DNA from: Aulosira sp. ZfuVER01 | GTDB lineage: Bacteria; Cyanobacteriota; Cyanobacteriia; Cyanobacteriales; Nostocaceae | DNA: 64,000 nt | Direction: 5' to 3' | NCBI GenBank assembly: GCA_034530615.2 | Contig: JAVRCV020000059.1 | Coordinates: 32,001 to 96,000, forward strand | The notes under the pieces: generated by a model | Databases searched by the model: none | What the model was told of the DNA's origin: nothing | The model's input: only the letters and a program-made list of their open reading frames with translations | Shown: one piece after another, positions 54,990-64,000 of the stretch | Numbering within the stretch: the first letter of the stretch is position 1 | Layout: each line of letters starts with the position of its first letter | Program-made: the position numbers and the translations under genes

Positions 54990-56609
54990 TTAGACTTTAC
55001 AAGTCTCAAGGCGAGAGAAGAGATACCCGACTGCCTTCCCACCCAGAATCCGATACGATATCTCATAGGAGGGACTGACGCGCGACGGGAGGTGTCCACG
55101 AGGGGCTGAAGTATTATAAGTTTCAACTACAATCCAGTTGCTTTCGACTCTCCATCCTACGCGATCGCCAAATTTCTTCCAGGCTTGTTCATCATACTTA
55201 CCACCTGGCTTACCACCAACGCTCAAGTAAATTTCTTTTTGAACGCTAAAGCCAAAGCGTCCATTGCTATATTTGACCCAGAGGCGGTCAATGGTGCGGA
55301 GGTCGGTACAGGGAAAGTTTAATAGTTCTTCATCTCTAATCCAGTCATTTTCCTTACGCCCTACCACTTGAAGCATTAGCACATAAGTTTCATAATCAGC
55401 ATCTTTCCACTTACCTGCTGCTAGTAGGTCGCGTAGTTTTGTATAGTCTACGCCTTTTTCTGAACTGAGGTCATTTTCCTTTGTAGCCGATTTAGAGGTA
55501 ATGTTTTTTGCTACCTTGTGCGCCCATTCTCGCTTGCTTTGAGAGGTAAATCGCGCCTCAATGTTTGCAATATCCTCATCTCTAAGTTGCAAAAGCTGCT
55601 GTAATCTCTTCAATTCTGCTTGTGTATGCTGGTTCAGAATCTCTTCATCCTGTATCGCCTCAACCAACGCTTCTTCGTATTCCCTGAGATTCTCTTGATA
55701 CTTGCGGTAAGGTTCCAAAACTTCGTTTTCAATTTGGGTTGCTATCTCAACTGACAAACCCAATTCACTTTGCCGACGTTTGAGAATGCGGCGACCTGTA
55801 ACAGAGACTTTACCATCTCTAACCCATCGTTCTACTTCTTTACGGTAATCTAATTGATGATCGCCTAAAGGAGCTTTCGCTAACTTAATTTTAAAGCCTT
55901 CTTTAATAGCATAAAGTTCTGGCTTCATTGCCGGGGCTGCTTCCTGCACTTTTTTACAGGCATATTCATGCAGTTCATCTACAGAAATCATGCCATCATT
56001 ATCAGTGTCAGCTGCGCCTTTCTCAATCCCTTCGACAATGTAGCGGGTGTAAACCGATAACTCTTCCCCTTCTTGTTCAAAAGAATACTGAGTAGATGTG
56101 GAAGAAGTTAGTACCGCCCTTCCTTCTCCTCCCAGTTGATTCTTGATGTCTAGGCTGTTATCACTTTTCGCTTTCATTCCTTCAGCAAAAGCACCGCTAA
56201 AGCAACAGTCAAGAATAATTACCTGTCGCCGGGAACGGCTATTTTCCATCATCTCATGTATGACTTTGGCAGCAATGGCGGTAGCTTTAATGAGTTCGCC
56301 CTTAGGATTCTTACGAGTTTGGCTAGTTGCTAAATATAATCTGCCAGTTTCATCTTTAATCCCATGTCCAGAGAAATACAACAGTAGTAGGTCATCTTTG
56401 TGACGACCAGAGAACAAGGTTTCAATTGCTTCTTCCATTATCTGGCGTGGGGGATTTTCCAACACTGTAATATCAGTATCAGCAAAATCACCCATTTCTG
56501 GGTGCTGTAACACTCGCTGCATTGCTTTTATATCTTGCACAGCGCTGGGTAAAGCATTTAACCCAGGTTGGTACTCACTAATTCCAATTAGCAATGCTAG
56601 CTTTGCCAT
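54990..56609 (-). CDS. Caspase-like (C14) peptidase, EACC1-associated type, with C-terminal GUN4 domain
   Basis: ALLIGISEY, YFSGHG and ILDCCFSG (His/Cys dyad); DYTKLRDLLAAGKWKDADYET...FGFSVQK (GUN4). Confidence 0.88.
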   Translation of the reverse strand: MAKLALLIGISEYQPGLNALPSAVQDIKAMQRVLQHPEMGDFADTDITVLENPPRQIMEEAIETLFSGRHKDDLLLLYFSGHGIKDETGRLYLATSQTRKNPKGELIKATAIAAKVIHEMMENSRSRRQVIILDCCFSGAFAEGMKAKSDNSLDIKNQLGGEGRAVLTSSTSTQYSFEQEGEELSVYTRYIVEGIEKGAADTDNDGMISVDELHEYACKKVQEAAPAMKPELYAIKEGFKIKLAKAPLGDHQLDYRKEVERWVRDGKVSVTGRRILKRRQSELGLSVEIATQIENEVLEPYRKYQENLREYEEALVEAIQDEEILNQHTQAELKRLQQLLQLRDEDIANIEARFTSQSKREWAHKVAKNITSKSATKENDLSSEKGVDYTKLRDLLAAGKWKDADYETYVLMLQVVGRKENDWIRDEELLNFPCTDLRTIDRLWVKYSNGRFGFSVQKEIYLSVGGKPGGKYDEQAWKKFGDRVGWRVESNWIVVETYNTSAPRGHLPSRVSPSYEISYRILGGKAVGYLFSRLETCKV

Positions 56610-56617
56610 GTACCTAT

Positions 56618-57010
56618 CTACACTTTTGTAATCTCTTGTATTGCATTTACTGCGGCTTCTAATTCTTGGCGACTGCTGGCTTTGACCTTAACTTTCTTGC
56701 TTTCACCACTTTCTTTGGTTAATTCTAGTTCTATTTCAATGGGTTTGTTACCTAAACGGTCAGTGAGAAAACCCCAAACTTGCTTGACACTATCTGATTT
56801 CACCAAAGCAATCACTTGACCGACAACATAGCCTGTGATTGACTTGCTTCCCACTGGTGCGTTGAGTTCAGCTACTCGGTTAACTTCTTCTACCTCATTG
56901 AGTTCTTTCATTTGATTCAGAAGTCTTTCGGCTTCTTCGTCTTTTTCCTCTTCATCCAAGTCTTGGTCAATAAAGGTGATTGTCAGTTTCAGGTCTGATG
57001 TGTCTGCCAT
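56618..57010 (-). CDS. Effector-associated constant component EACC1-like protein
   Basis: 130 aa, acidic N-terminal helix, APVGSKS motif, hydrophobic middle; 8 bp upstream of caspase gene. Confidence 0.75.
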   Translation of the reverse strand: MADTSDLKLTITFIDQDLDEEEKDEEAERLLNQMKELNEVEEVNRVAELNAPVGSKSITGYVVGQVIALVKSDSVKQVWGFLTDRLGNKPIEIELELTKESGESKKVKVKASSRQELEAAVNAIQEITKV

Positions 57011-57640: not shown

Positions 57641-58138
57641 ATGCCAAATGAGCTGTTACAAATTCTAGTGCCTGCATTTATTGGTGCCGCTTCTGGATAT
57701 CTAATTAATCAATTGCCGCCACTGAGAACGTTTCGAGGTAGCAAGTTACTGGTAATTGCTATAGCGATTGAACTTGCGGTTTTGGGAGGAATTTGGGCAT
57801 GGTTAGCTGGAGATGTTGCTAAAACCTCGAATATCAGGGGACTAGTAGAAAAGCTTGGTTTTGCATTATTAGGAGCTTTTGTAGTTAATTTTATGCAACT
57901 TATATTTGGGATCAGTTGGGGTAGACAATCTGCACAACCAACTTTCCCGCAGCCAGGCACAAATGCTGGAACTGTGGTGAGAGGTACAAAGATGACCGGA
58001 AAGGGCAATAAAGCCACAGTTAGCAAAGGAGATGTGTGGGTAGAAAATACTGAAATAGATGGTGAAAACCAGGAATTTTCTGTAACAGATGATTTCAATC
58101 GGCCTTCTTCGCAACAAAATAATACTCCGAATCCATGA
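57641..58138 (+). CDS. Three-TM membrane protein with C-terminal 21-aa pseudo-repeat pair (candidate amyloid effector)
   Basis: Hydrophobic segments about aa 5-22, 36-56, 72-92; Pro/Gln linker; TVVRGTKMTGKGNKATV and VWVENTEIDGENQEFSV. Confidence 0.75.
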   Translation: MPNELLQILVPAFIGAASGYLINQLPPLRTFRGSKLLVIAIAIELAVLGGIWAWLAGDVAKTSNIRGLVEKLGFALLGAFVVNFMQLIFGISWGRQSAQPTFPQPGTNAGTVVRGTKMTGKGNKATVSKGDVWVENTEIDGENQEFSVTDDFNRPSSQQNNTPNP

Positions 58139-58917
58139 TTATCGCCAATCACATGATCGCTAATCGCACGCAGGAAGTTTTACTTTTTGAGCAGATGGTA
58201 GCGGGAAGCTTTACCAAACGAGTGCTACTGATTGAAGGTAAATCTGGTTTTGGTAAGACTTGGTTACTGGCTCGGTTGAAACAAACTCTGCCTCTAAAGA
58301 CGTTATGTGTACAAGTAGATTTCAAATTACCACAACCAGGCATTCCTGATATTTTTTTTTATATACGCAGGCGTTTGGGAAAGGAAAATTTTCCTCAGTT
58401 AAATGCTGCTTCTGAGCGATATTTGAGTTCGGGGATACAAATCTGTGACACTACAATGATTGGAAAAGATAACCAATTTAGTGTAGTTTTGAGCAATTTA
58501 GATGAGAGTACACGAAATTTTCGCTTGACTCTATTAAGAGAAGCATTTTTTGAGGACTTGCGTAAAATTCCCCAAAAACTAGTTTTTTTGTTTGATTCTT
58601 ACGAAAAAGCCCCTACTGAACTGGCAAATTGGTTAGAGGGTGAATTCTTAGCAGAAGTTGTCTATACACCCAAATTAATTGTAGTAATTGCCGGACAGCA
58701 GATTCCTCAAGCAACAATCGAATGGATAGATTTACATCATTGTTGTTCTTTGGAAGCCATTTTGGAATTAAAAGCATGGTGTGAATACGCCCAAAATGAA
58801 AGATTATCCCTGAATCACTATGAAGTGAATGCAGCGATGGTTCTGTGTAAAGGGCAACCTGCTGAAATTGCGGCAGCCTTAAAGACGCTAGAGGCGGAAG
58901 CGAGGAAAAGGCAATGA
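58135..58917 (+). CDS. STAND-like P-loop NTPase (NTPase + helical domain only)
   Basis: Walker A GKSGFGKT, Walker B LVFLFDSYE, VVIAG sensor strand, C-terminal KGQP (GxP); ATGA overlap with upstream gene. Confidence 0.85.
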   Translation: MIIANHMIANRTQEVLLFEQMVAGSFTKRVLLIEGKSGFGKTWLLARLKQTLPLKTLCVQVDFKLPQPGIPDIFFYIRRRLGKENFPQLNAASERYLSSGIQICDTTMIGKDNQFSVVLSNLDESTRNFRLTLLREAFFEDLRKIPQKLVFLFDSYEKAPTELANWLEGEFLAEVVYTPKLIVVIAGQQIPQATIEWIDLHHCCSLEAILELKAWCEYAQNERLSLNHYEVNAAMVLCKGQPAEIAAALKTLEAEARKRQ

Positions 58918-61523
58918 ATAATCCTTTATTAGAGAAGCTAGCAAAGGCACAAACAGACGAAGAACGTTTTTGGATTGTAACTGAGAGTTTACTTTCGACG
59001 CTTTCACCTGATTTAGCAGCAGTAGCGTGGGCTGCGGCAATTCCTCACTGGTTTAATGCAGATATCTTGGCGGCACTGCGTCCAGAATTGCAAGCACAAG
59101 CATCTCAGCTTTATATTGAATTGCAAGGCTTACCTTTCGTAGAAGAGTTTCCACGTCAAGGGCATAATATTCACGATTTAACACGACGGCAAATGTTAAA
59201 TCACTTGTGGCATGAGCATCGAAATGAATTTATGACGATGTCACAACGAGCAGCAGAGTATTTTTTCAGCAGCTATGAGCGTCAAGAAAAGATAAATGAC
59301 CAGCCAGAAACTCAAATTGAATGGCTGTATCACTTAGTGGTAATTGACCCAGAATGGAAAGGTAGTGAGCTTAGGGATTTAGCAAAAAACTGGGTGAATA
59401 ATTTTCGCACTGCTGAACTAGAATATCTGATTGGAGCATTACTAGAACAGATTACAGCAGAGCGAGTGGCAACACTTGCTAAAGCAGAAACTTACTTTTG
59501 GGCAGGTAGAGCGAAATTTCAATTTTCTAAGACAACAGAAGCTTTAGAGAGCTACAAAGCAGCATTAGAATTCTACCGCCAGATGGGTAATCATTTGGGG
59601 GAAGCTAATACCTTAAAAGCAATCGGTGATGTCTTGCACTTCCAAAAACAAACTACTGAAGCCTTAGAAAGCTATGAAGCGGCATTGGCATTCTACCGTG
59701 ACATGGTCGTTAGCGAAGTTCCTCCTTTGGAGGCTCGCTTGGGGGAAGCTAATACCTTAAAAGCAATCGGCGATGTCTTGCAGTTGCTTGACCGATGCAG
59801 CGAAGCCTTAGAAAGCTACGAAGCAGCATTGATATCCTACCGTGACATTGTCGTTAGCGAAGTTTCTCCTTTGGAGGCTCGCTTGGAGAAAGCTAATATC
59901 CTAAAAGCAATCGGTGATGTCTTGCAGTTCCTTGACCGACGCAGCAAAGCCTTAGAAAGCTACCAAGAAGCATTGGTATCCTACAGCCAGATTAGTGCTC
60001 GTTTGGGGGAAGCCAATACATTAAAAGCAATCGGCGATGTTTTACAGTTCCAAAAAGACAGTAGTGGAGCCTTAAAAAACTACAAAATGGCATTGAGACT
60101 CTACCGCCAAATTAATGCTCACCTGGGGGAAGCTAATACTTTAAGAGCAATGGGTGATGTCTTGCAGTTCCAAAAAGACAGTAGTGGAGCCTTAAAAAAC
60201 TACAAAGCAGCATTGACATTGTACCGCCAGATTGGCGATCGCTTAGGGGAAGCCAATACCTTAAAAGCAATCGGCGATGTTTTGAAGTTCCAAAAAGACA
60301 GTATTAAAGCTTTAAATAAATACGAAACCGCATTGGAATTATACCGCCAGATTAGCGCTCGCTTGGGGGAAGCCAATACTTTAAGAGCAGTCGGCGATGT
60401 TTTGCAGTTCCAAAAAGACAGTACTAGAGCCTTAGAATGCTATGAAGCAGCATTGGAATTATACCACCAGATTGGCGATCGCTTGGGGGAAGCCAATACT
60501 TTAAGAGTAATCGGCGATGTTTTGCAGTTCCAAAAAGACAGTACTCAAGCCTTAACTAAATACGAAGCGGCACTGCGCTTATACCACGACGTAGGCGATC
60601 GATTGGGAGAAGCTAATACTTTAAGAGCAATCGGTGATGTCTTGCAGTTCCTTGACCGAAAAACCGAAGCCTTAGAACGCTACCAAGAAGCATTAGCATC
60701 CTACCAACAGATTGAAGCTCGCTTGGGAGAAGCTAATACTTTAAAAGCGATCGGCGATGTTTTGCAGTCTCAAAGAAGTAGTACTGAAGCCTTACAAAAC
60801 TACGAAGCAGCATTTGCGTTATACCGCGACATTGTTGATCTTTTAGGAGAAGCTAACACCTTAAAAGCAATTGGCGATGTTTTGCAGTCCCAAGGAAGCA
60901 GTACTGAAGCCTTAGAACGCTACGCAGCGTCATTGGAATTATACCGTCGGATTGGTGCTCGTCTTGGAGAAGCTAATACTTTACAGGCAATCGGTGATGT
61001 TTTGCAATCTCGGGAAAATAGTGACGAAGCCTTAGAACGCTACGAAGCAGCATTGGAATTATACCGTCAGATTGGCGCTTGCTTAGGAGAAGCTAATACT
61101 TTACAGGCAATGGGTGATGTCTTACGCTTCCTTAAGCGACACACCAAAGCTTTAGAGCGCTACGAAGAAGCATTGACATTATGTCGTCAAATCAGATATC
61201 GCTTGGGAGAAGCTAATACTTTACAAGCTATAGGAATCTTACAAGAAAATTTAACTTCGGGTTTAACGTATTGTCAGGAAGCATTAAAATTGTATAACCA
61301 AATGAGTGATAAGTATAGCCAAAGTCGGAATTTAATATACTTTACATCTGAAATTCTCTTAAAACTAGGACGACAACAAGAAGCATTAGATACCCTCCAT
61401 CAAGCTATTGATCTTGCTAGTGAAATTCCCTATCAAAAATTGGTAAACGTTGCCTCAGAAAAAATTAGCGAAATCCACAGATCAGCACGGGATAATGCAA
61501 AGAGTGAGAGACGCGGAGATTAA
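58914..61523 (+). CDS. Winged-helix-like N-terminus + TPR repeat protein
   Basis: AIPHWF...LPFVE...NIHDLTR, then 14 LGEANTL.AIGDVL repeats of 40 aa; ATGA overlap. Confidence 0.88.
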   Translation: MNNPLLEKLAKAQTDEERFWIVTESLLSTLSPDLAAVAWAAAIPHWFNADILAALRPELQAQASQLYIELQGLPFVEEFPRQGHNIHDLTRRQMLNHLWHEHRNEFMTMSQRAAEYFFSSYERQEKINDQPETQIEWLYHLVVIDPEWKGSELRDLAKNWVNNFRTAELEYLIGALLEQITAERVATLAKAETYFWAGRAKFQFSKTTEALESYKAALEFYRQMGNHLGEANTLKAIGDVLHFQKQTTEALESYEAALAFYRDMVVSEVPPLEARLGEANTLKAIGDVLQLLDRCSEALESYEAALISYRDIVVSEVSPLEARLEKANILKAIGDVLQFLDRRSKALESYQEALVSYSQISARLGEANTLKAIGDVLQFQKDSSGALKNYKMALRLYRQINAHLGEANTLRAMGDVLQFQKDSSGALKNYKAALTLYRQIGDRLGEANTLKAIGDVLKFQKDSIKALNKYETALELYRQISARLGEANTLRAVGDVLQFQKDSTRALECYEAALELYHQIGDRLGEANTLRVIGDVLQFQKDSTQALTKYEAALRLYHDVGDRLGEANTLRAIGDVLQFLDRKTEALERYQEALASYQQIEARLGEANTLKAIGDVLQSQRSSTEALQNYEAAFALYRDIVDLLGEANTLKAIGDVLQSQGSSTEALERYAASLELYRRIGARLGEANTLQAIGDVLQSRENSDEALERYEAALELYRQIGACLGEANTLQAMGDVLRFLKRHTKALERYEEALTLCRQIRYRLGEANTLQAIGILQENLTSGLTYCQEALKLYNQMSDKYSQSRNLIYFTSEILLKLGRQQEALDTLHQAIDLASEIPYQKLVNVASEKISEIHRSARDNAKSERRGD
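59595..61240 (+). repeat. Intragenic 120-bp tandem repeats encoding TPRs (first two units 144 bp)
   Basis: Near-identical GGGGAAGCYAATACYTTAARAGCAATCGGYGATGT blocks at 120-bp period. Confidence 0.9.
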
Positions 61524-61615: not shown

Positions 61616-62476
61616 TTACTTTTCTACCATTTCTTTCTTCTTCTGCGGTGTAAATATCCCGTGTCGAGGACTAAATAATAATGCCAATACAAATAATCCC
61701 GATACTACTAAAACGATCGCGGGGCCGGAGGGTAAGTTATAAAAGTAGCTGAGGTACATTCCACTAATACTAGAAATTACGCCGATAACTGCACCCAAAA
61801 TCATGACTTGGTTTAAGCGTTTAACTAATAAATAGGCGGTAGCACCTGGGGTAATTAATAGTGAAAGTACAAGAATCACACCTACAGCTTTCATGCTGGC
61901 GACAATTGTTAACGCAATTAGCAGCATTAATCCAAAGTTCAGCCGATTTACTGGTAAACCTGCGGCTTGTGCGCCTAAGGGGTCAAAAGTGTAAAATAAA
62001 AGTTCTTTATATAACAAAACTACAACTAATAAAACAATCGCGGCAATGATGGCAGTGTCTCTGACTTCATCAATAGTAACGCCAAGAATATTACCGAAAA
62101 GAAAGTGATTGAGGTCGATTTTGTTATCTTTTTGAATGACGGTAATTAGAGTAATACCAAGGGCAAAAAATGCCGAGAAAACTATGCCCATTGCGGCATC
62201 TTCTTTAATTGGCGATCGCGTTCTAATTACTGCGATCGCCATTGTACTAAGAACGCCGGCAATAAATGCGCCAACAAATATATTCCCTCCCACCATAAAA
62301 GCGATCGCTAGTCCTGGCAAAACTGAGTGACTGATGGCATCACCAAGTAATGCCAATCGCTGTACCATTAAGTAGCTGCCAACAACTGCACACAATAAGC
62401 CGACTAAAATCGCAATCACTAGCGATCGCTGCATAAAGCCATATTGTAATGGCTCGATTAATGCTTGAAATGTCAT
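61616..62476 (-). CDS. mntB: Mn/Zn ABC transporter permease
   Basis: LLGDAISHSVLPG, HFLFGNIL, FDP, PSGPAIV. Confidence 0.88.
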   Translation of the reverse strand: MTFQALIEPLQYGFMQRSLVIAILVGLLCAVVGSYLMVQRLALLGDAISHSVLPGLAIAFMVGGNIFVGAFIAGVLSTMAIAVIRTRSPIKEDAAMGIVFSAFFALGITLITVIQKDNKIDLNHFLFGNILGVTIDEVRDTAIIAAIVLLVVVLLYKELLFYTFDPLGAQAAGLPVNRLNFGLMLLIALTIVASMKAVGVILVLSLLITPGATAYLLVKRLNQVMILGAVIGVISSISGMYLSYFYNLPSGPAIVLVVSGLFVLALLFSPRHGIFTPQKKKEMVEK

Positions 62477-62535
62477 TTGTTATTTGTCATTTGTAATTTG
62501 TCAGGCACAGGAATTTCCTTTTTCCTTTTCCCTTT

Positions 62536-63363
62536 TTATGCTGCATCAGAAAAGTACATTACTTTACCACCATAAGCACTGTGTAAGTTTTCTTCGGTGA
62601 GTACTTGCTGCCGTGAACCTGTGGCTATTAATTCCCGGTTTAATAATATTAAATCATCAAAGTGGGCTATCGATTCCCCTAAGTCGTGGTTGACTACTAA
62701 GACAATTTTGCCTGCGGTTGCAAGTTCATGAAAGACTTCAAATACTACTGTCTGAGTCTTCTGATCGATACCTACTAATGGTTCATCAAAGCAGAAAATT
62801 TCTGCTTGCTGGGTTAAAGCACGGGCTAAAAATACTCGTTGCTGCTGTCCTCCAGAAAGTTCTCCAATGGGGCGATCGCGAAATTGGTTCATCCCCACTC
62901 TTTCTAAAGCATTATTTGCTACTTGGCGGCTAACTGCGGAAAAGCTACGCAACCATCCTGTTTTTTTGACCCTTCCCATCATTACTACATCCCAGACTGT
63001 AGCAGGGTAAGTCCAATCTATTTGGCTGCGCTGTGGTACATAAGCAACTTTCTCTAGTTGCTGCATTAACGGTTTACCTTGGTATAAGACATTACCACTA
63101 ATTGGAGTAACTAAGCCTAACATGGCTTTCATTAAAGTACTTTTACCAGCACCATTGGGGCCAAAAATACCTGTAAGTCTACCAGGTTCAATAAAACAGT
63201 TGACATCTCTCAAAGCTTCTTGTGTGCGGTAGTGTACCCCAAGATGGGTGATGCTAATTCCTTGTGTAGATTTCATTTCATGAGTTTTGATTGCTTGTGT
63301 AGATATTTCCCTAGTTTGCCTCGGTGCTAGGCTCATCTTTTTGTAAAAAGAGATACTCTTCAT
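62536..63363 (-). CDS. mntA: Mn/Zn ABC transporter ATP-binding protein
   Basis: GPNGAGKST, YVPQR, LSGGQQQRVFLARAL; start uncertain. Confidence 0.88.
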   Translation of the reverse strand: MKSISFYKKMSLAPRQTREISTQAIKTHEMKSTQGISITHLGVHYRTQEALRDVNCFIEPGRLTGIFGPNGAGKSTLMKAMLGLVTPISGNVLYQGKPLMQQLEKVAYVPQRSQIDWTYPATVWDVVMMGRVKKTGWLRSFSAVSRQVANNALERVGMNQFRDRPIGELSGGQQQRVFLARALTQQAEIFCFDEPLVGIDQKTQTVVFEVFHELATAGKIVLVVNHDLGESIAHFDDLILLNRELIATGSRQQVLTEENLHSAYGGKVMYFSDAA

Positions 63364-63403
63364 AATATTGTTTTAATATTTCATTCTTTGAGCTTACTAT
63401 AAA

Positions 63404-63422
63404 AATGAGAAAAATATGAAAA
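63404..63422 (+). promoter_or_regulatory. Putative ManR binding site
   Basis: AATGAGAA-AAA-TATGAAAA direct repeat with 11-bp period between the divergent mnt genes. Confidence 0.65.
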
Positions 63423-63453
63423 AATCTATAGTGAGAAGTAATATTACAGATAA

Positions 63454-64000
63454 ATGAAACTAATGCTTGGGATAGACATGAGTAGTTGGAGTAAAGCGAA
63501 GGTAAATAAAATCAACAAGAATATTGTTTCGCAGATATGCCTGGGAATGCTTCTACCTTTGGCTTTATTTGGTTGTAGCCAACCGACTGAAGGTAACAAT
63601 CCTCAGGGAAATGGTAAACCGAAGGTTGTTGCAACCAGCACAATCATTGCTGATTTAACACAAGAAATTGCGGGAGAGGAAATTCAGCTAACTGGAATTC
63701 TCAAACCAGGTACAGATCCCCATGTTTACGAACCAGTACCAGCAGACAGCCGGGTTTTAGAAGAAGCTAAATTGATTTTGTATAACGGCTACAACCTGGA
63801 ACCGGGATTGATTAAGTTAATGAATGCTGCTGGTGGAAGAGTAAAGCGGTTAGCAGTGGGAGAAGTTGTCAAACCTTTGGAGTTAGATAAAGGGAAAGGC
63901 GAAATAGTCCCAGATCCTCATGTTTGGGGTAGTGCAGAAAATGCGATCGCAATGGTAACTGTAATTCGTGATGGTTTAATTGAGCTATTACCAGAAGATA
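63454..64000 (+). CDS. mntC: Mn/Zn ABC substrate-binding lipoprotein, 3' end outside window
   Basis: Lipobox LFGC, KVVATSTII, GTDPHVYEP, NGYNLE, PDPHVW; start may be 63463 or 63478. Confidence 0.88.
   Translation, partial: MKLMLGIDMSSWSKAKVNKINKNIVSQICLGMLLPLALFGCSQPTEGNNPQGNGKPKVVATSTIIADLTQEIAGEEIQLTGILKPGTDPHVYEPVPADSRVLEEAKLILYNGYNLEPGLIKLMNAAGGRVKRLAVGEVVKPLELDKGKGEIVPDPHVWGSAENAIAMVTVIRDGLIELLPED

Follow-up and report, generated by a model that had tools for sequence, protein, structure and literature searches.

A candidate NLR-like three-gene cassette in which a membrane protein and a split receptor share a strand-turn-strand motif

How might a bacterial NLR-like receptor be wired to an effector encoded in a separate gene? 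The question is raised by three consecutive genes in a 64,000-nt stretch of Aulosira sp. ZfuVER01 DNA (the window), in which a first-pass annotation had seen a candidate amyloid-signalling system made of a membrane effector, an NTPase and a TPR sensor. The ORF coordinates agree with the three genes on the plus strand and with the ATGA coupling described for them. Gene 1 (57641..58138) encodes a 165-aa membrane protein, the presumed effector; gene 2 (58135..58917) encodes a 260-aa P-loop NTPase of the AAA+/STAND fold, with a nucleotide-binding domain and a helical lid; and gene 3 (58914..61523) encodes an 869-aa protein in which a continuation of the STAND module is followed by a TPR array. Both junctions are ATGA overlaps of 4 nt. 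We consider it somewhat more probable than its alternatives together that the three genes form an NLR-like conflict cassette, in which a split STAND receptor would be coupled to the upstream membrane effector via a shared motif, with stacking or polymerising effector tails.

The gene 2 protein is a P-loop NTPase with both Walker motifs and a STAND/AAA+ fold. Walker A occupies aa 35-42 (58237..58260, plus strand) and the Walker B strand of the AF2 model aa 149-154 (58579..58596, plus strand); Gly40 and Lys41 of the former and Asp154 of the latter are invariant in 80 diverse family members. The AF2 model (pLDDT 84, pTM 0.80) matched the archaeal Walker ATPase 2qen, Cdc6/ORC, MalT (8bob), RuvBL and HslU in Foldseek. 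With Pfam, NACHT was reached at 26.9 bits (cut-off 26.7) and only over 26 residues (29-54), AAA_22 and AAA_16 remained below the cut-off, and nSTAND6 and iSTAND were far below theirs. The gene 3 protein contains 10 TPR_12 stretches (Pfam, E=7e-86), and its residues 3-288 align to residues 320-586 of the relative P0109, directly after the P0109 NTPase domain (E=8e-9); by this alignment, its N-terminal ~190 aa continue the STAND module. P0109 has the NTPase and the repeat sensor in one chain, as does P0133, judged by its length and match position, whereas here they are encoded by two genes. As had been proposed from the sequence, the NTPase and the TPR protein form a split STAND/NLR-like receptor, with the TPR array as the presumed sensor.

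The gene 1 protein consists of an N-terminal helical hydrophobic domain (aa 1-94; 57641..57922, plus strand) with 2-3 membrane-spanning helices, a disordered linker and a C-terminal tail with two repeats. Its earlier description as a 3-TM protein holds in part, in that AF2 predicts three helices (2-23, 34-62 and 66-94), but only two segments, aa 31-59 and 73-91, are clearly hydrophobic in 19-residue Kyte-Doolittle windows (>=1.6). Linker residues 95-109 have pLDDT<50, and the tail is modelled with moderate confidence (pLDDT 63-67) as six short strands at 112-148. No family was matched in Pfam (E<=0.1), NCBIfam or PADLOC, and the remark that the motif is unlike HET-s in sequence agrees with the Pfam result. 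Foldseek gave no match at E<=0.001, the Atlas yielded nothing, and the family searches recognised no toxic domain. Compared with Bell/HeLo-like domains, the protein has the hydrophobic N-terminal helices without a family match or a Foldseek match (E<=0.001). A search at E<=0.001 found 25 proteins including the query, mostly from Nostoc and Calothrix by source names, of which 23 were aligned.

The two tail repeats are R1 (aa 111-127; 57971..58021, plus strand; net charge +4) and R2 (aa 132-148; 58034..58084, plus strand; net charge -5), with R2 starting 21 residues after R1. The AF2 strands are at 112-114, 117-119 and 124-127 in R1 and at 133-135, 138-140 and 145-148 in R2. R1 is rich in lysine and the tails are highly charged. 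The third copy, R0, was annotated at aa 101-117 of the NTPase (58435-58485), between Walker A and Walker B, and this placement is correct; the hairpin as a whole covers aa 100-119 (58432..58491, plus strand). Translation of the three intervals returned exactly the 17-mers that had been quoted, and their alignment reproduced the invariant positions 6, 10 and 17 and the conservative positions 3, 8, 13, 15 and 16. R1 is conserved among the 23 aligned membrane proteins and R0 in the NTPase orthologs, and the pattern across lineages consists of alternating hydrophobics, Asn/Thr at position 6 and Gly at position 10.

From the window alone, the similarity of R0, R1 and R2 is only marginal. Shuffled sequences equalled the best ungapped 17-mer match of membrane protein and NTPase in 206 of 2000 cases, which is not significant within the window, and the R1/R2 match inside the membrane protein in 934 of 2000. 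When the two ortholog alignments were compared with hhalign, the top match was R1 against R0 (P=0.0054), at a probability of only 6.7%. Among the 16.05 million six-frame 17-mers of the genome, 98 scored as well against R0 as R2 does, and 283 as well as R1. The shuffle tests, the hhalign probability and the two cyanobacterial clusters described below that lack an ungapped match are what would be expected if the likeness reflected chance or common beta-hairpin composition without any functional link. We find this explanation very improbable, and we judge the likeness to be real because of the comparative data from other genomes and not because of the window statistics: tails and hairpins co-vary by lineage, and Chloroflexota have long near-identical copies of the insert in CHAT proteins and NTPases, one of them at a genome-wide E of 9e-7.

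In cyanobacteria, 44 records, 12 of them duplicates, represent 32 distinct places, and in all 32 a same-strand ORF ends <=35 nt before the NTPase start. Among the 12 Nostocales loci, the neighbouring genes on either side vary. The upstream proteins have 1-3 N-terminal hydrophobic helices in 7 of the 8 NTPase clusters and two anchored tail repeats in 6 of the 8. Upstream genes in other genomes do have the motif; its absence from them had been named as an outcome that would count against the idea. The upstream protein of the eighth cluster was analysed as a truncated sequence, with a tail near-identical to the L039 type. The profile search suggested earlier had a mixed outcome, in that a generic hairpin HMM picked up the tail repeats, but at weak scores only. 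When tails and hairpins were permuted between lineages, the cognate pairing was the best of 120 permutations for five lineages, and for eight lineages it was reached by 68-362 of 40320, depending on window length. In three lineages, none of the 34-36 other NTPase windows matches the tail as well as the hairpin does. Only 2-3 of the 8 rows of the eight-lineage matrix have the cognate hairpin as their one best partner, and the L039- and L080-type clusters showed no ungapped tail/hairpin match above background. Taken together, the data support the proposal that the effector-like membrane protein and the NTPase have a conserved motif in common, whose copies vary jointly from lineage to lineage.

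R0 is a strand-turn-strand insert (AF2 strands 103-109 and 114-119) between helices 87-98 and 124-144, and residues 100-118 have pLDDT<50 within the otherwise confident NTPase model. The model thus predicts an exposed hairpin on the surface; a buried core element is what the first-pass annotation had named as counting against the idea. A caveat is that a hairpin pattern defined post hoc was found in 71 of 93 stand-alone NTPase representatives. An R0-type hairpin is therefore nearly family-wide and may serve some other purpose in the first place. It could be primarily an element of the NTPase, for example at the ring pore or between subunits, like the helix-2 inserts of other AAA+ proteins, and the membrane protein would then be a mimicking regulator or anchor that keeps the receptor inactive instead of an effector. 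The hairpin pattern is frequent in the family, the Foldseek matches RuvBL and HslU are AAA+ proteins with inserts between the Walker motifs, and the membrane protein lacks a recognisable toxic domain. We still regard this as improbable. In relatives, the same slot, as the upstream gene or an N-terminal fusion, is filled by the classical effectors CHAT and TIR, and the hairpin pattern is absent from the fused-effector forms (0 of 14 representatives with N-terminally fused CHAT, TIR, EAD or wHTH; 2 of 14 by eye). Since the hairpin pattern is absent when the effector is fused, a recruiting role fits better than a core mechanical one.

The charges of the two tail repeats bear on how such recruitment might work. 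Aligned in register, R1 and R2 of this protein give four opposite-charge pairs and zero like-charge pairs; 14 proteins give 50 opposite versus 3 like pairs, and one representative per lineage gives 19 versus 1. Shifting the register by 1-3 gave 3-31 opposite and 1-15 like pairs, and several of the pairs have their signs reversed between lineages. This complementarity would fit a two-rung beta-solenoid, as in HET-s, whose rungs are joined by salt bridges. The HET-S/NWD2 system of Podospora (HRAM) likewise pairs a single-copy receptor with an effector that targets the membrane and has two 21-residue pseudo-repeats, and its rungs are charge-complementary in the way proposed here for R1 and R2. 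Unlike HET-S/NWD2, the cassette is bacterial, has a different effector domain and an internal receptor motif, and does not match it in sequence.

Relatives show what else the R0 site can hold. In the NTPases of Chloroflexota the site is expanded, and at 4 of 9 loci the expanded insert recurs at the C-terminus of a CHAT-domain protein (Pfam, E 1e-30 to 1e-33). The CHAT gene adjoins the NTPase gene in L021 and L024 and lies farther upstream in L018 (4.8 kb) and L025 (5 kb). In L025, the CHAT copy is the only strong non-self match to the insert in the 4.5-Mb genome (E=9e-7). A partner copy was not found within the DNA examined at 4 of the 9 loci, nor in the whole L027 genome. At the R0 site of 6 of 8 long-insert representatives, EAD7 is inserted, which is presented as a predicted homotypic effector-coupling domain (PMC7159879). 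Judged from these inserts, the R0 site is probably an adaptor site.

Alternatively, the tail could bind R0 1:1, in a fixed heteromeric beta-sheet or a three-rung mini-domain, and activation would follow from proximity in the receptor oligomer; the motif would then act as a very small EAD-type adaptor without a self-propagating polymer. Such docking accounts for the sequence data as well as amyloid templating does. The motif has three hallmarks given for EADs (PMC7159879), namely a copy on the core, a copy on the effector from the neighbouring gene, and the greatest likeness between neighbouring copies, and EAD7 itself occupies the R0 site in relatives. In addition, the Chloroflexota effector has a single long copy and not two repeats, and a Lys-rich R1 in highly charged tails is unusual compared with the amyloid cores as described. 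EADs are characterised there as small globular, mostly helical domains, whereas the motif here is a strand-turn-strand of 17-21 residues that, taken alone, is disordered or of low confidence in AF2 and not a small globular domain. The 2:1 copy number and the R1/R2 charge complementarity are, however, needed by an extendable solenoid and not by a 1:1 dock, and in every lineage R0 is similar to one rung of the pair (5-8 of 17 positions identical), as expected of a template. We consider 1:1 docking possible but rather unlikely.

The best reading of the coupling is that it is mediated by the motif in the manner of BASS and HET-s, except that the receptor carries its copy within the NTPase domain and not at the N-terminus; the amyloid part is put forward by analogy. 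The likeness to BASS1-10 was drawn from their published descriptions (10.1101/2020.01.06.895854). As described there, Bell/NLR pairs also have a small effector that begins with a hydrophobic helix and ends in a beta-prone motif, and the genes are collinear and overlapping, with the same short motif repeated on the adjacent gene for a TPR-bearing NLR-like NTPase. Two effector pseudo-repeats and one receptor copy are the arrangement reported for HRAM and BASS1/6, in keeping with the 2:1 copy number here. The hosts, filamentous cyanobacteria and Chloroflexota, CHAT as an alternative effector, and a beta-prone motif with conserved G/N/Q and a hydrophobic pattern are also common to both, with units of 17-21 residues here versus about 25. 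In contrast to the published pairs, where the receptor copy is described at the NLR N-terminus, the copy here lies between the two Walker motifs, and two genes encode the receptor; the cassette repeats are strongly charged with a Lys-rich R1, whereas BASS motifs are reported as Lys-depleted. Because the NTPase barely touches Pfam NACHT, a screen of NB-ARC/NACHT N-termini such as the published one would have missed the cassette.

A further relative is the E. coli anti-phage pair Bab/Agp (BASS11; 10.1101/2024.11.07.622273), in which a TPR protein is described as the neighbour of an effector of ~100 aa that has a hydrophobic helix at its N-terminus and an amyloid motif at its C-terminus. Foci or polymers of the tagged effector are reported on activation (10.1101/2024.11.07.622273). 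In that account, Agp is without an NTPase and has the motif at its N-terminus, whereas the motif of the cassette predicted here is inside the NTPase.

By analogy with these systems, the receptor and the effector of the cassette would be linked by the short shared strand-turn-strand motif rather than by fusion or a globular adaptor. The receptor would present one copy, R0, on the flexible hairpin between Walker A and Walker B, and the basic R1 and acidic R2 would lie in register on each other, forming the two rungs of a small beta-solenoid. With sensing by the TPR array and oligomerisation that depends on nucleotide, the R0 hairpins would cluster and offer one more rung for effector tails to stack on and polymerise; we infer that this would gather the hydrophobic helices and damage the membrane. 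A stronger form, which we hold as tentative, is that the hairpin is a true receptor-side amyloid-signalling motif that nucleates a charge-zippered two-rung effector polymer. Being built into the nucleotide-binding domain, the hairpin would have its exposure and clustering directly gated by nucleotide state and ring assembly. In cyanobacteria the nucleated effector would be the membrane protein, and in Chloroflexota a CHAT protease. If this form is true, it would define a new, widespread, prion-like signalling class, overlooked by screens of NLR N-termini, with thousands of NTPase family members.

The cassette is likely a new way of wiring a receptor to a cell-damaging effector, since in the known amyloid-signalling and adaptor systems the receptor bears its copy of the coupling motif at one terminus, and here the copy is an NTPase-internal insert. 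In a large NTPase family (2745 representative clusters at E<=0.001), a single site is occupied by a short beta motif in some members and by an expanded beta segment or EAD7 in others. This suggests that the nucleotide-binding domain in a bacterial NLR-like family has a general docking site for effectors, and that their recruitment could be gated by nucleotide state. Searches for amyloid signalling motifs can thereby be widened past protein termini, and tails of ~40 residues with hairpins of 20 provide compact pairs for testing.

The TPR units of gene 3 are also visible in the DNA as a tandem array (59595..61223, plus strand). Tandem Repeats Finder resolved it into 2.7 copies of a 144-nt period at 59595-59984 (87% matches) and 11.2 copies of a 120-nt period at 59879-61223 (76% matches). 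Gene 3 orthologs that are whole in their loci encode 331-660 aa, compared with 869 aa here.

The cassette comprises three open reading frames on the same strand: gene 1 encodes the 165-aa membrane protein (57641-58138), gene 2 a 260-aa P-loop NTPase (58135-58917) and gene 3 an 869-aa TPR protein (58914-61523). As proposed in the first-pass annotation, the genes are coupled by ATGA overlaps at the cassette junctions, and the three 17-residue strings reported there, two repeats in the membrane-protein tail (R1 and R2) and a like copy in the NTPase (R0), are exact translations of the intervals assigned to them and were correctly described position by position. Also accurate was the location given for R0 (aa 101-117), downstream of Walker A (aa 35-42) and ahead of the Walker B strand (aa 149-154). 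Promoter and terminator scanning gave nothing above shuffled sequence. The membrane protein has no family match in Pfam, NCBIfam or PADLOC, its model has no Foldseek match at E ≤ 0.001, and an ESM Atlas search returned no usable match. In the AF2 model (pLDDT 63), three helices are followed by a disordered linker and six short strands, three per repeat.

The NTPase is modelled by AF2 as an AAA+/STAND-type domain (pLDDT 84, pTM 0.80), and Foldseek matches this model to the archaeal Walker ATPase 2qen, Cdc6/ORC, MalT, RuvBL and HslU, while PADLOC gave no meaningful match. In RuvBL and HslU, inserts separate the two Walker motifs. Internally, pLDDT falls below 50 at residues 100-118 alone; these contain R0 and are modelled as a hairpin flanked by helices 87-98 and 124-144. 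A buried core position of R0 in all homologous NTPases would have counted against the first-pass reading; since residues 100-118 form a low-pLDDT hairpin between two helices, R0 is instead predicted to be an exposed insert.

We determined how often the likeness among R0, R1 and R2 arises by chance. The best ungapped 17-mer between the membrane protein and the NTPase was matched by 206 of 2000 shuffles, and the R1/R2 self-match within the membrane protein by 934 of 2000, neither of which is significant. A profile-to-profile comparison of the two sets of aligned orthologs, with 23 and 21 sequences, gave R1 with R0 as its sole match (P = 0.0054, probability 6.7%). Six-frame translation of the genome yields 16.05 million 17-mers, of which 98 score at least as high as R2 against R0 and 283 at least as high as R1; the top match is an unrelated 386-aa ORF on contig C51, nuclease-like as judged by eye. 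Hence, in the window data alone the likeness is no more than chance, and the case therefore depends on other genomes. A generic hairpin HMM of 20 columns picks up the tail repeats, but with weak scores. Searching the whole genomes G148 and G264 with 50-residue hairpin segments returned the query alone, a search too insensitive for matches of 12-17 residues.

In cyanobacteria, whole-genome searches found NTPase matches in 9 of 401 genomes sampled across the phylum (E ≤ 1e-10), 17 of 401 sampled across the order (E ≤ 1e-12) and 28 of 389 at the family level (E ≤ 1e-25). The 44 records, including 12 earlier loci and the window, contained 12 duplicate places and gave 32 distinct NTPase sequences, which form 8 clusters at 60% identity. 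In all 32 distinct loci (the contig-cut locus L077 is outside this count), a same-strand ORF ends at most 35 nt before the NTPase start. The upstream protein has 1-3 N-terminal hydrophobic helices in seven of the eight clusters; in the eighth it is seen as 36 residues, with a tail nearly identical to that of the L039 type (cyanobacterial types are named after one locus each). Upstream genes lacking the motif in other genomes would have counted against the first-pass reading; 6 of the 8 clusters have a pair of anchored tail repeats, spaced by 18-21 residues. At least two or three unrelated kinds of N-terminal domain occur in the upstream proteins, with the repeats as the constant part, and the flanking genes vary among the 12 Nostocales loci. 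The single-pass upstream proteins of L036, L037, L038, L048, L070, L072, L075 and L076, which share a strongly hydrophobic N-terminal helix, are an effector family distinct from the Nostoc-type protein of the window. In the four of these examined at full length, the helix is followed by a conserved basic-acidic patch, and three of the four (L037, L070 and L076) have an acidic residue at position 2, which recalls a Bell/HeLo feature.

The tail repeats are closer to the hairpin of their own NTPase than to the hairpins of other lineages. Closely related Nostoc-type orthologs vary too little for co-variation among them to be informative. With one representative from each of five lineages, the cognate assignment outscores every other of the 120 permutations at each of three window lengths. 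With eight lineages, the cognate score is reached by 263, 362, 135 and 68 of the 40320 permutations (windows of 10, 12, 15 and 17), and with a second set of representatives by 250 and 72. The cognate hairpin outscores every other partner in only 2-3 of the 8 rows, since three clusters have a similar motif. For the window, the L035 type and the L037 type, the hairpin matches the tail better than any of the 34-36 other NTPase windows, and in the remaining five lineages 2-14 other windows equal it. The L039 and L080 types have no ungapped tail/hairpin match above background; the L039 pair can be aligned by eye with a one-residue gap.

An alignment of R1 with R2 anchored on the conserved Asn/Thr and Gly has 50 opposite-charge pairs in register against 3 of like charge (14 proteins, about 6 lineages), or 19 and 1 with one representative per lineage, compared with 3-31 opposite and 1-15 like pairs when the register is shifted by 1-3 residues. 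The sign of several paired positions flips between lineages. Such complementarity is expected if two rungs stack in parallel and in register, and the HET-s solenoid has a similar charge-paired stacking. In each lineage, 5-8 of the 17 R0 positions are identical to R1 or R2, and the central charged residue of R0 has the opposite sign to that of one of the two. At the sequence level, the data fit a mechanism in which receptor and effector would be coupled via a common short beta motif. Here we lean slightly towards templated stacking of the motif, to which the R1/R2 pairing would be suited; simple docking, which would give a fixed docked sheet without self-propagating amyloid, is possible but rather unlikely. 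Structure prediction for a complex between the NTPase and residues 98-165 of the tail (score 0.01, mark 0.32) weighs neither way on binding.

A profile search of the NTPase family gave 2745 representatives at E ≤ 0.001, of which 162 reach E ≤ 1e-30. Throughout the family, a hairpin occupies the position homologous to R0. Its pattern, defined post hoc, occurs in 71 of 93 stand-alone representatives with short inserts and in 0 of 14 with N-terminal fusions (2 of 14 by eye), a descriptive contrast and not a clean test because the groups are mutually related; the 14 fusions were found among 148 listed representatives examined, with close kin of the query excluded. The R0 site is enlarged to 40-89 residues in 23 stand-alone representatives; 8 representatives have 90 or more inserted residues there, and in 6 of the 8 the insert is an EAD7 effector-associated domain (Pfam E 4e-21 to 8e-6); Pfam scans of the other two, P0145 and P0130, found no EAD7. 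In P0092, P0100, P0104, P0121, P0176 and P0192, EAD7 lies within the NTPase domain, at the R0-hairpin site, and not at a terminus; in published descriptions, as far as their available text goes, EADs are typically terminal fusions. A Pfam scan of 16 family proteins confirmed CHAT, TIR, EAD4, EAD7 and winged-helix regulator domains, and additional CHAT-like N-termini were assigned by eye. Since CHAT or TIR domains, fused or encoded upstream, occupy the effector slot in relatives, the membrane protein is, by analogy, best read as the effector.

In Chloroflexota, the NTPase insert has 45-60 residues and there is no small membrane gene upstream. In 4 of 9 loci, the insert has a close copy at the C-terminus of a protein with a CHAT domain (three of the four by Pfam, E 1e-30 to 1e-33), the gene of which lies directly upstream (L021 and L024), 4.8 kb upstream (L018) or 5 kb upstream (L025). 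Apart from the insert itself, the CHAT copy is the sole strong match across the 4.5-Mb genome of L025 (E = 9e-7, 56% identity over 40 residues). EAD7 also ends two of these proteins, in L021 (by Pfam) and in L025 (by eye). No insert copy was found within the locus DNA examined for L017, L019, L020 and L027 (L026 was not among the evaluated loci), nor in the whole genome of L027. The genome of L019 (G1033) has 14 weak insert matches, at E 9e-4 to 0.6, which fall in other large proteins and include that of locus L084. The recurring element there is the Gly/Asp/Val-rich beta motif of the NTPase insert, in one example just before a membrane helix of a TPR protein, and in Chloroflexota it could be a coupling motif in wide use.

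The N-terminus of the TPR protein aligns to the part of a single-chain family member (P0109, 1315 aa) directly after the NTPase domain (E = 8e-9); genes 2 and 3 together therefore make up a split STAND/NLR-like receptor. The TPRs are encoded by a DNA-level tandem array at 59595-61223 with a 120-nt period (11.2 copies, 76% matches) and, within it, a second period of 144 nt (2.7 copies, 87% matches). Orthologs at loci with the whole gene have 331-660 aa compared with 869 aa here, which suggests that repeats are gained and lost by recombination. Partner TPR proteins in Chloroflexota (984-1640 aa) have hydrophobic, membrane-helix-like segments in and after the TPR region (L024, 6862-11463; also L017, L019, L021, L025 and L027), and the receptors there could themselves be embedded in a membrane.

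Two effector copies to one receptor copy, as in the cassette, are described for the HET-s motif HRAM and the bacterial amyloid signalling sequences BASS1/6 (10.1101/2020.01.06.895854), and the BASS pairs in the available part of that work likewise have collinear overlapping genes and filamentous hosts. Bab/Agp, such a pair from E. coli, is described in the text available as working in phage defence. Unlike the receptor motifs that published summaries place at NLR N-termini (PMC12261475, in the parts accessible), the motif of the cassette is internal and the receptor is split. It agrees with the EAD adaptor description in the accessible part of PMC7159879, except that it is not a globular domain. 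In the accessible text of the literature searched, including PMC7159879, PMC8195603, PMC13581612 and PMC12261475, we found no internal receptor-side motif or such cassette; supplementary tables might list related pairs.

Beside the cassette, a divergent pair (54990-57010, minus strand) includes a 539-aa caspase of the EACC1-associated type (NCBIfam E = 8e-55), whose C-terminus is a GUN4-like domain (Pfam E = 3e-41) and which also matches PADLOC PD-T4-6 (E = 2e-48). The adjacent 130-aa acidic protein, which has no family match, is probably its EACC1-like partner. The pair is a second conflict system adjoining the cassette; we rejected it as a cassette part because it is not a conserved neighbour in other genomes. 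Downstream, 61616-64000 encodes a 286-aa ABC permease, a 275-aa ABC ATPase and the first part of a solute-binding protein; judged by eye, these look like a transporter for metal uptake, and they have no relation to the cassette. The same downstream transporter neighbours are found in L005.
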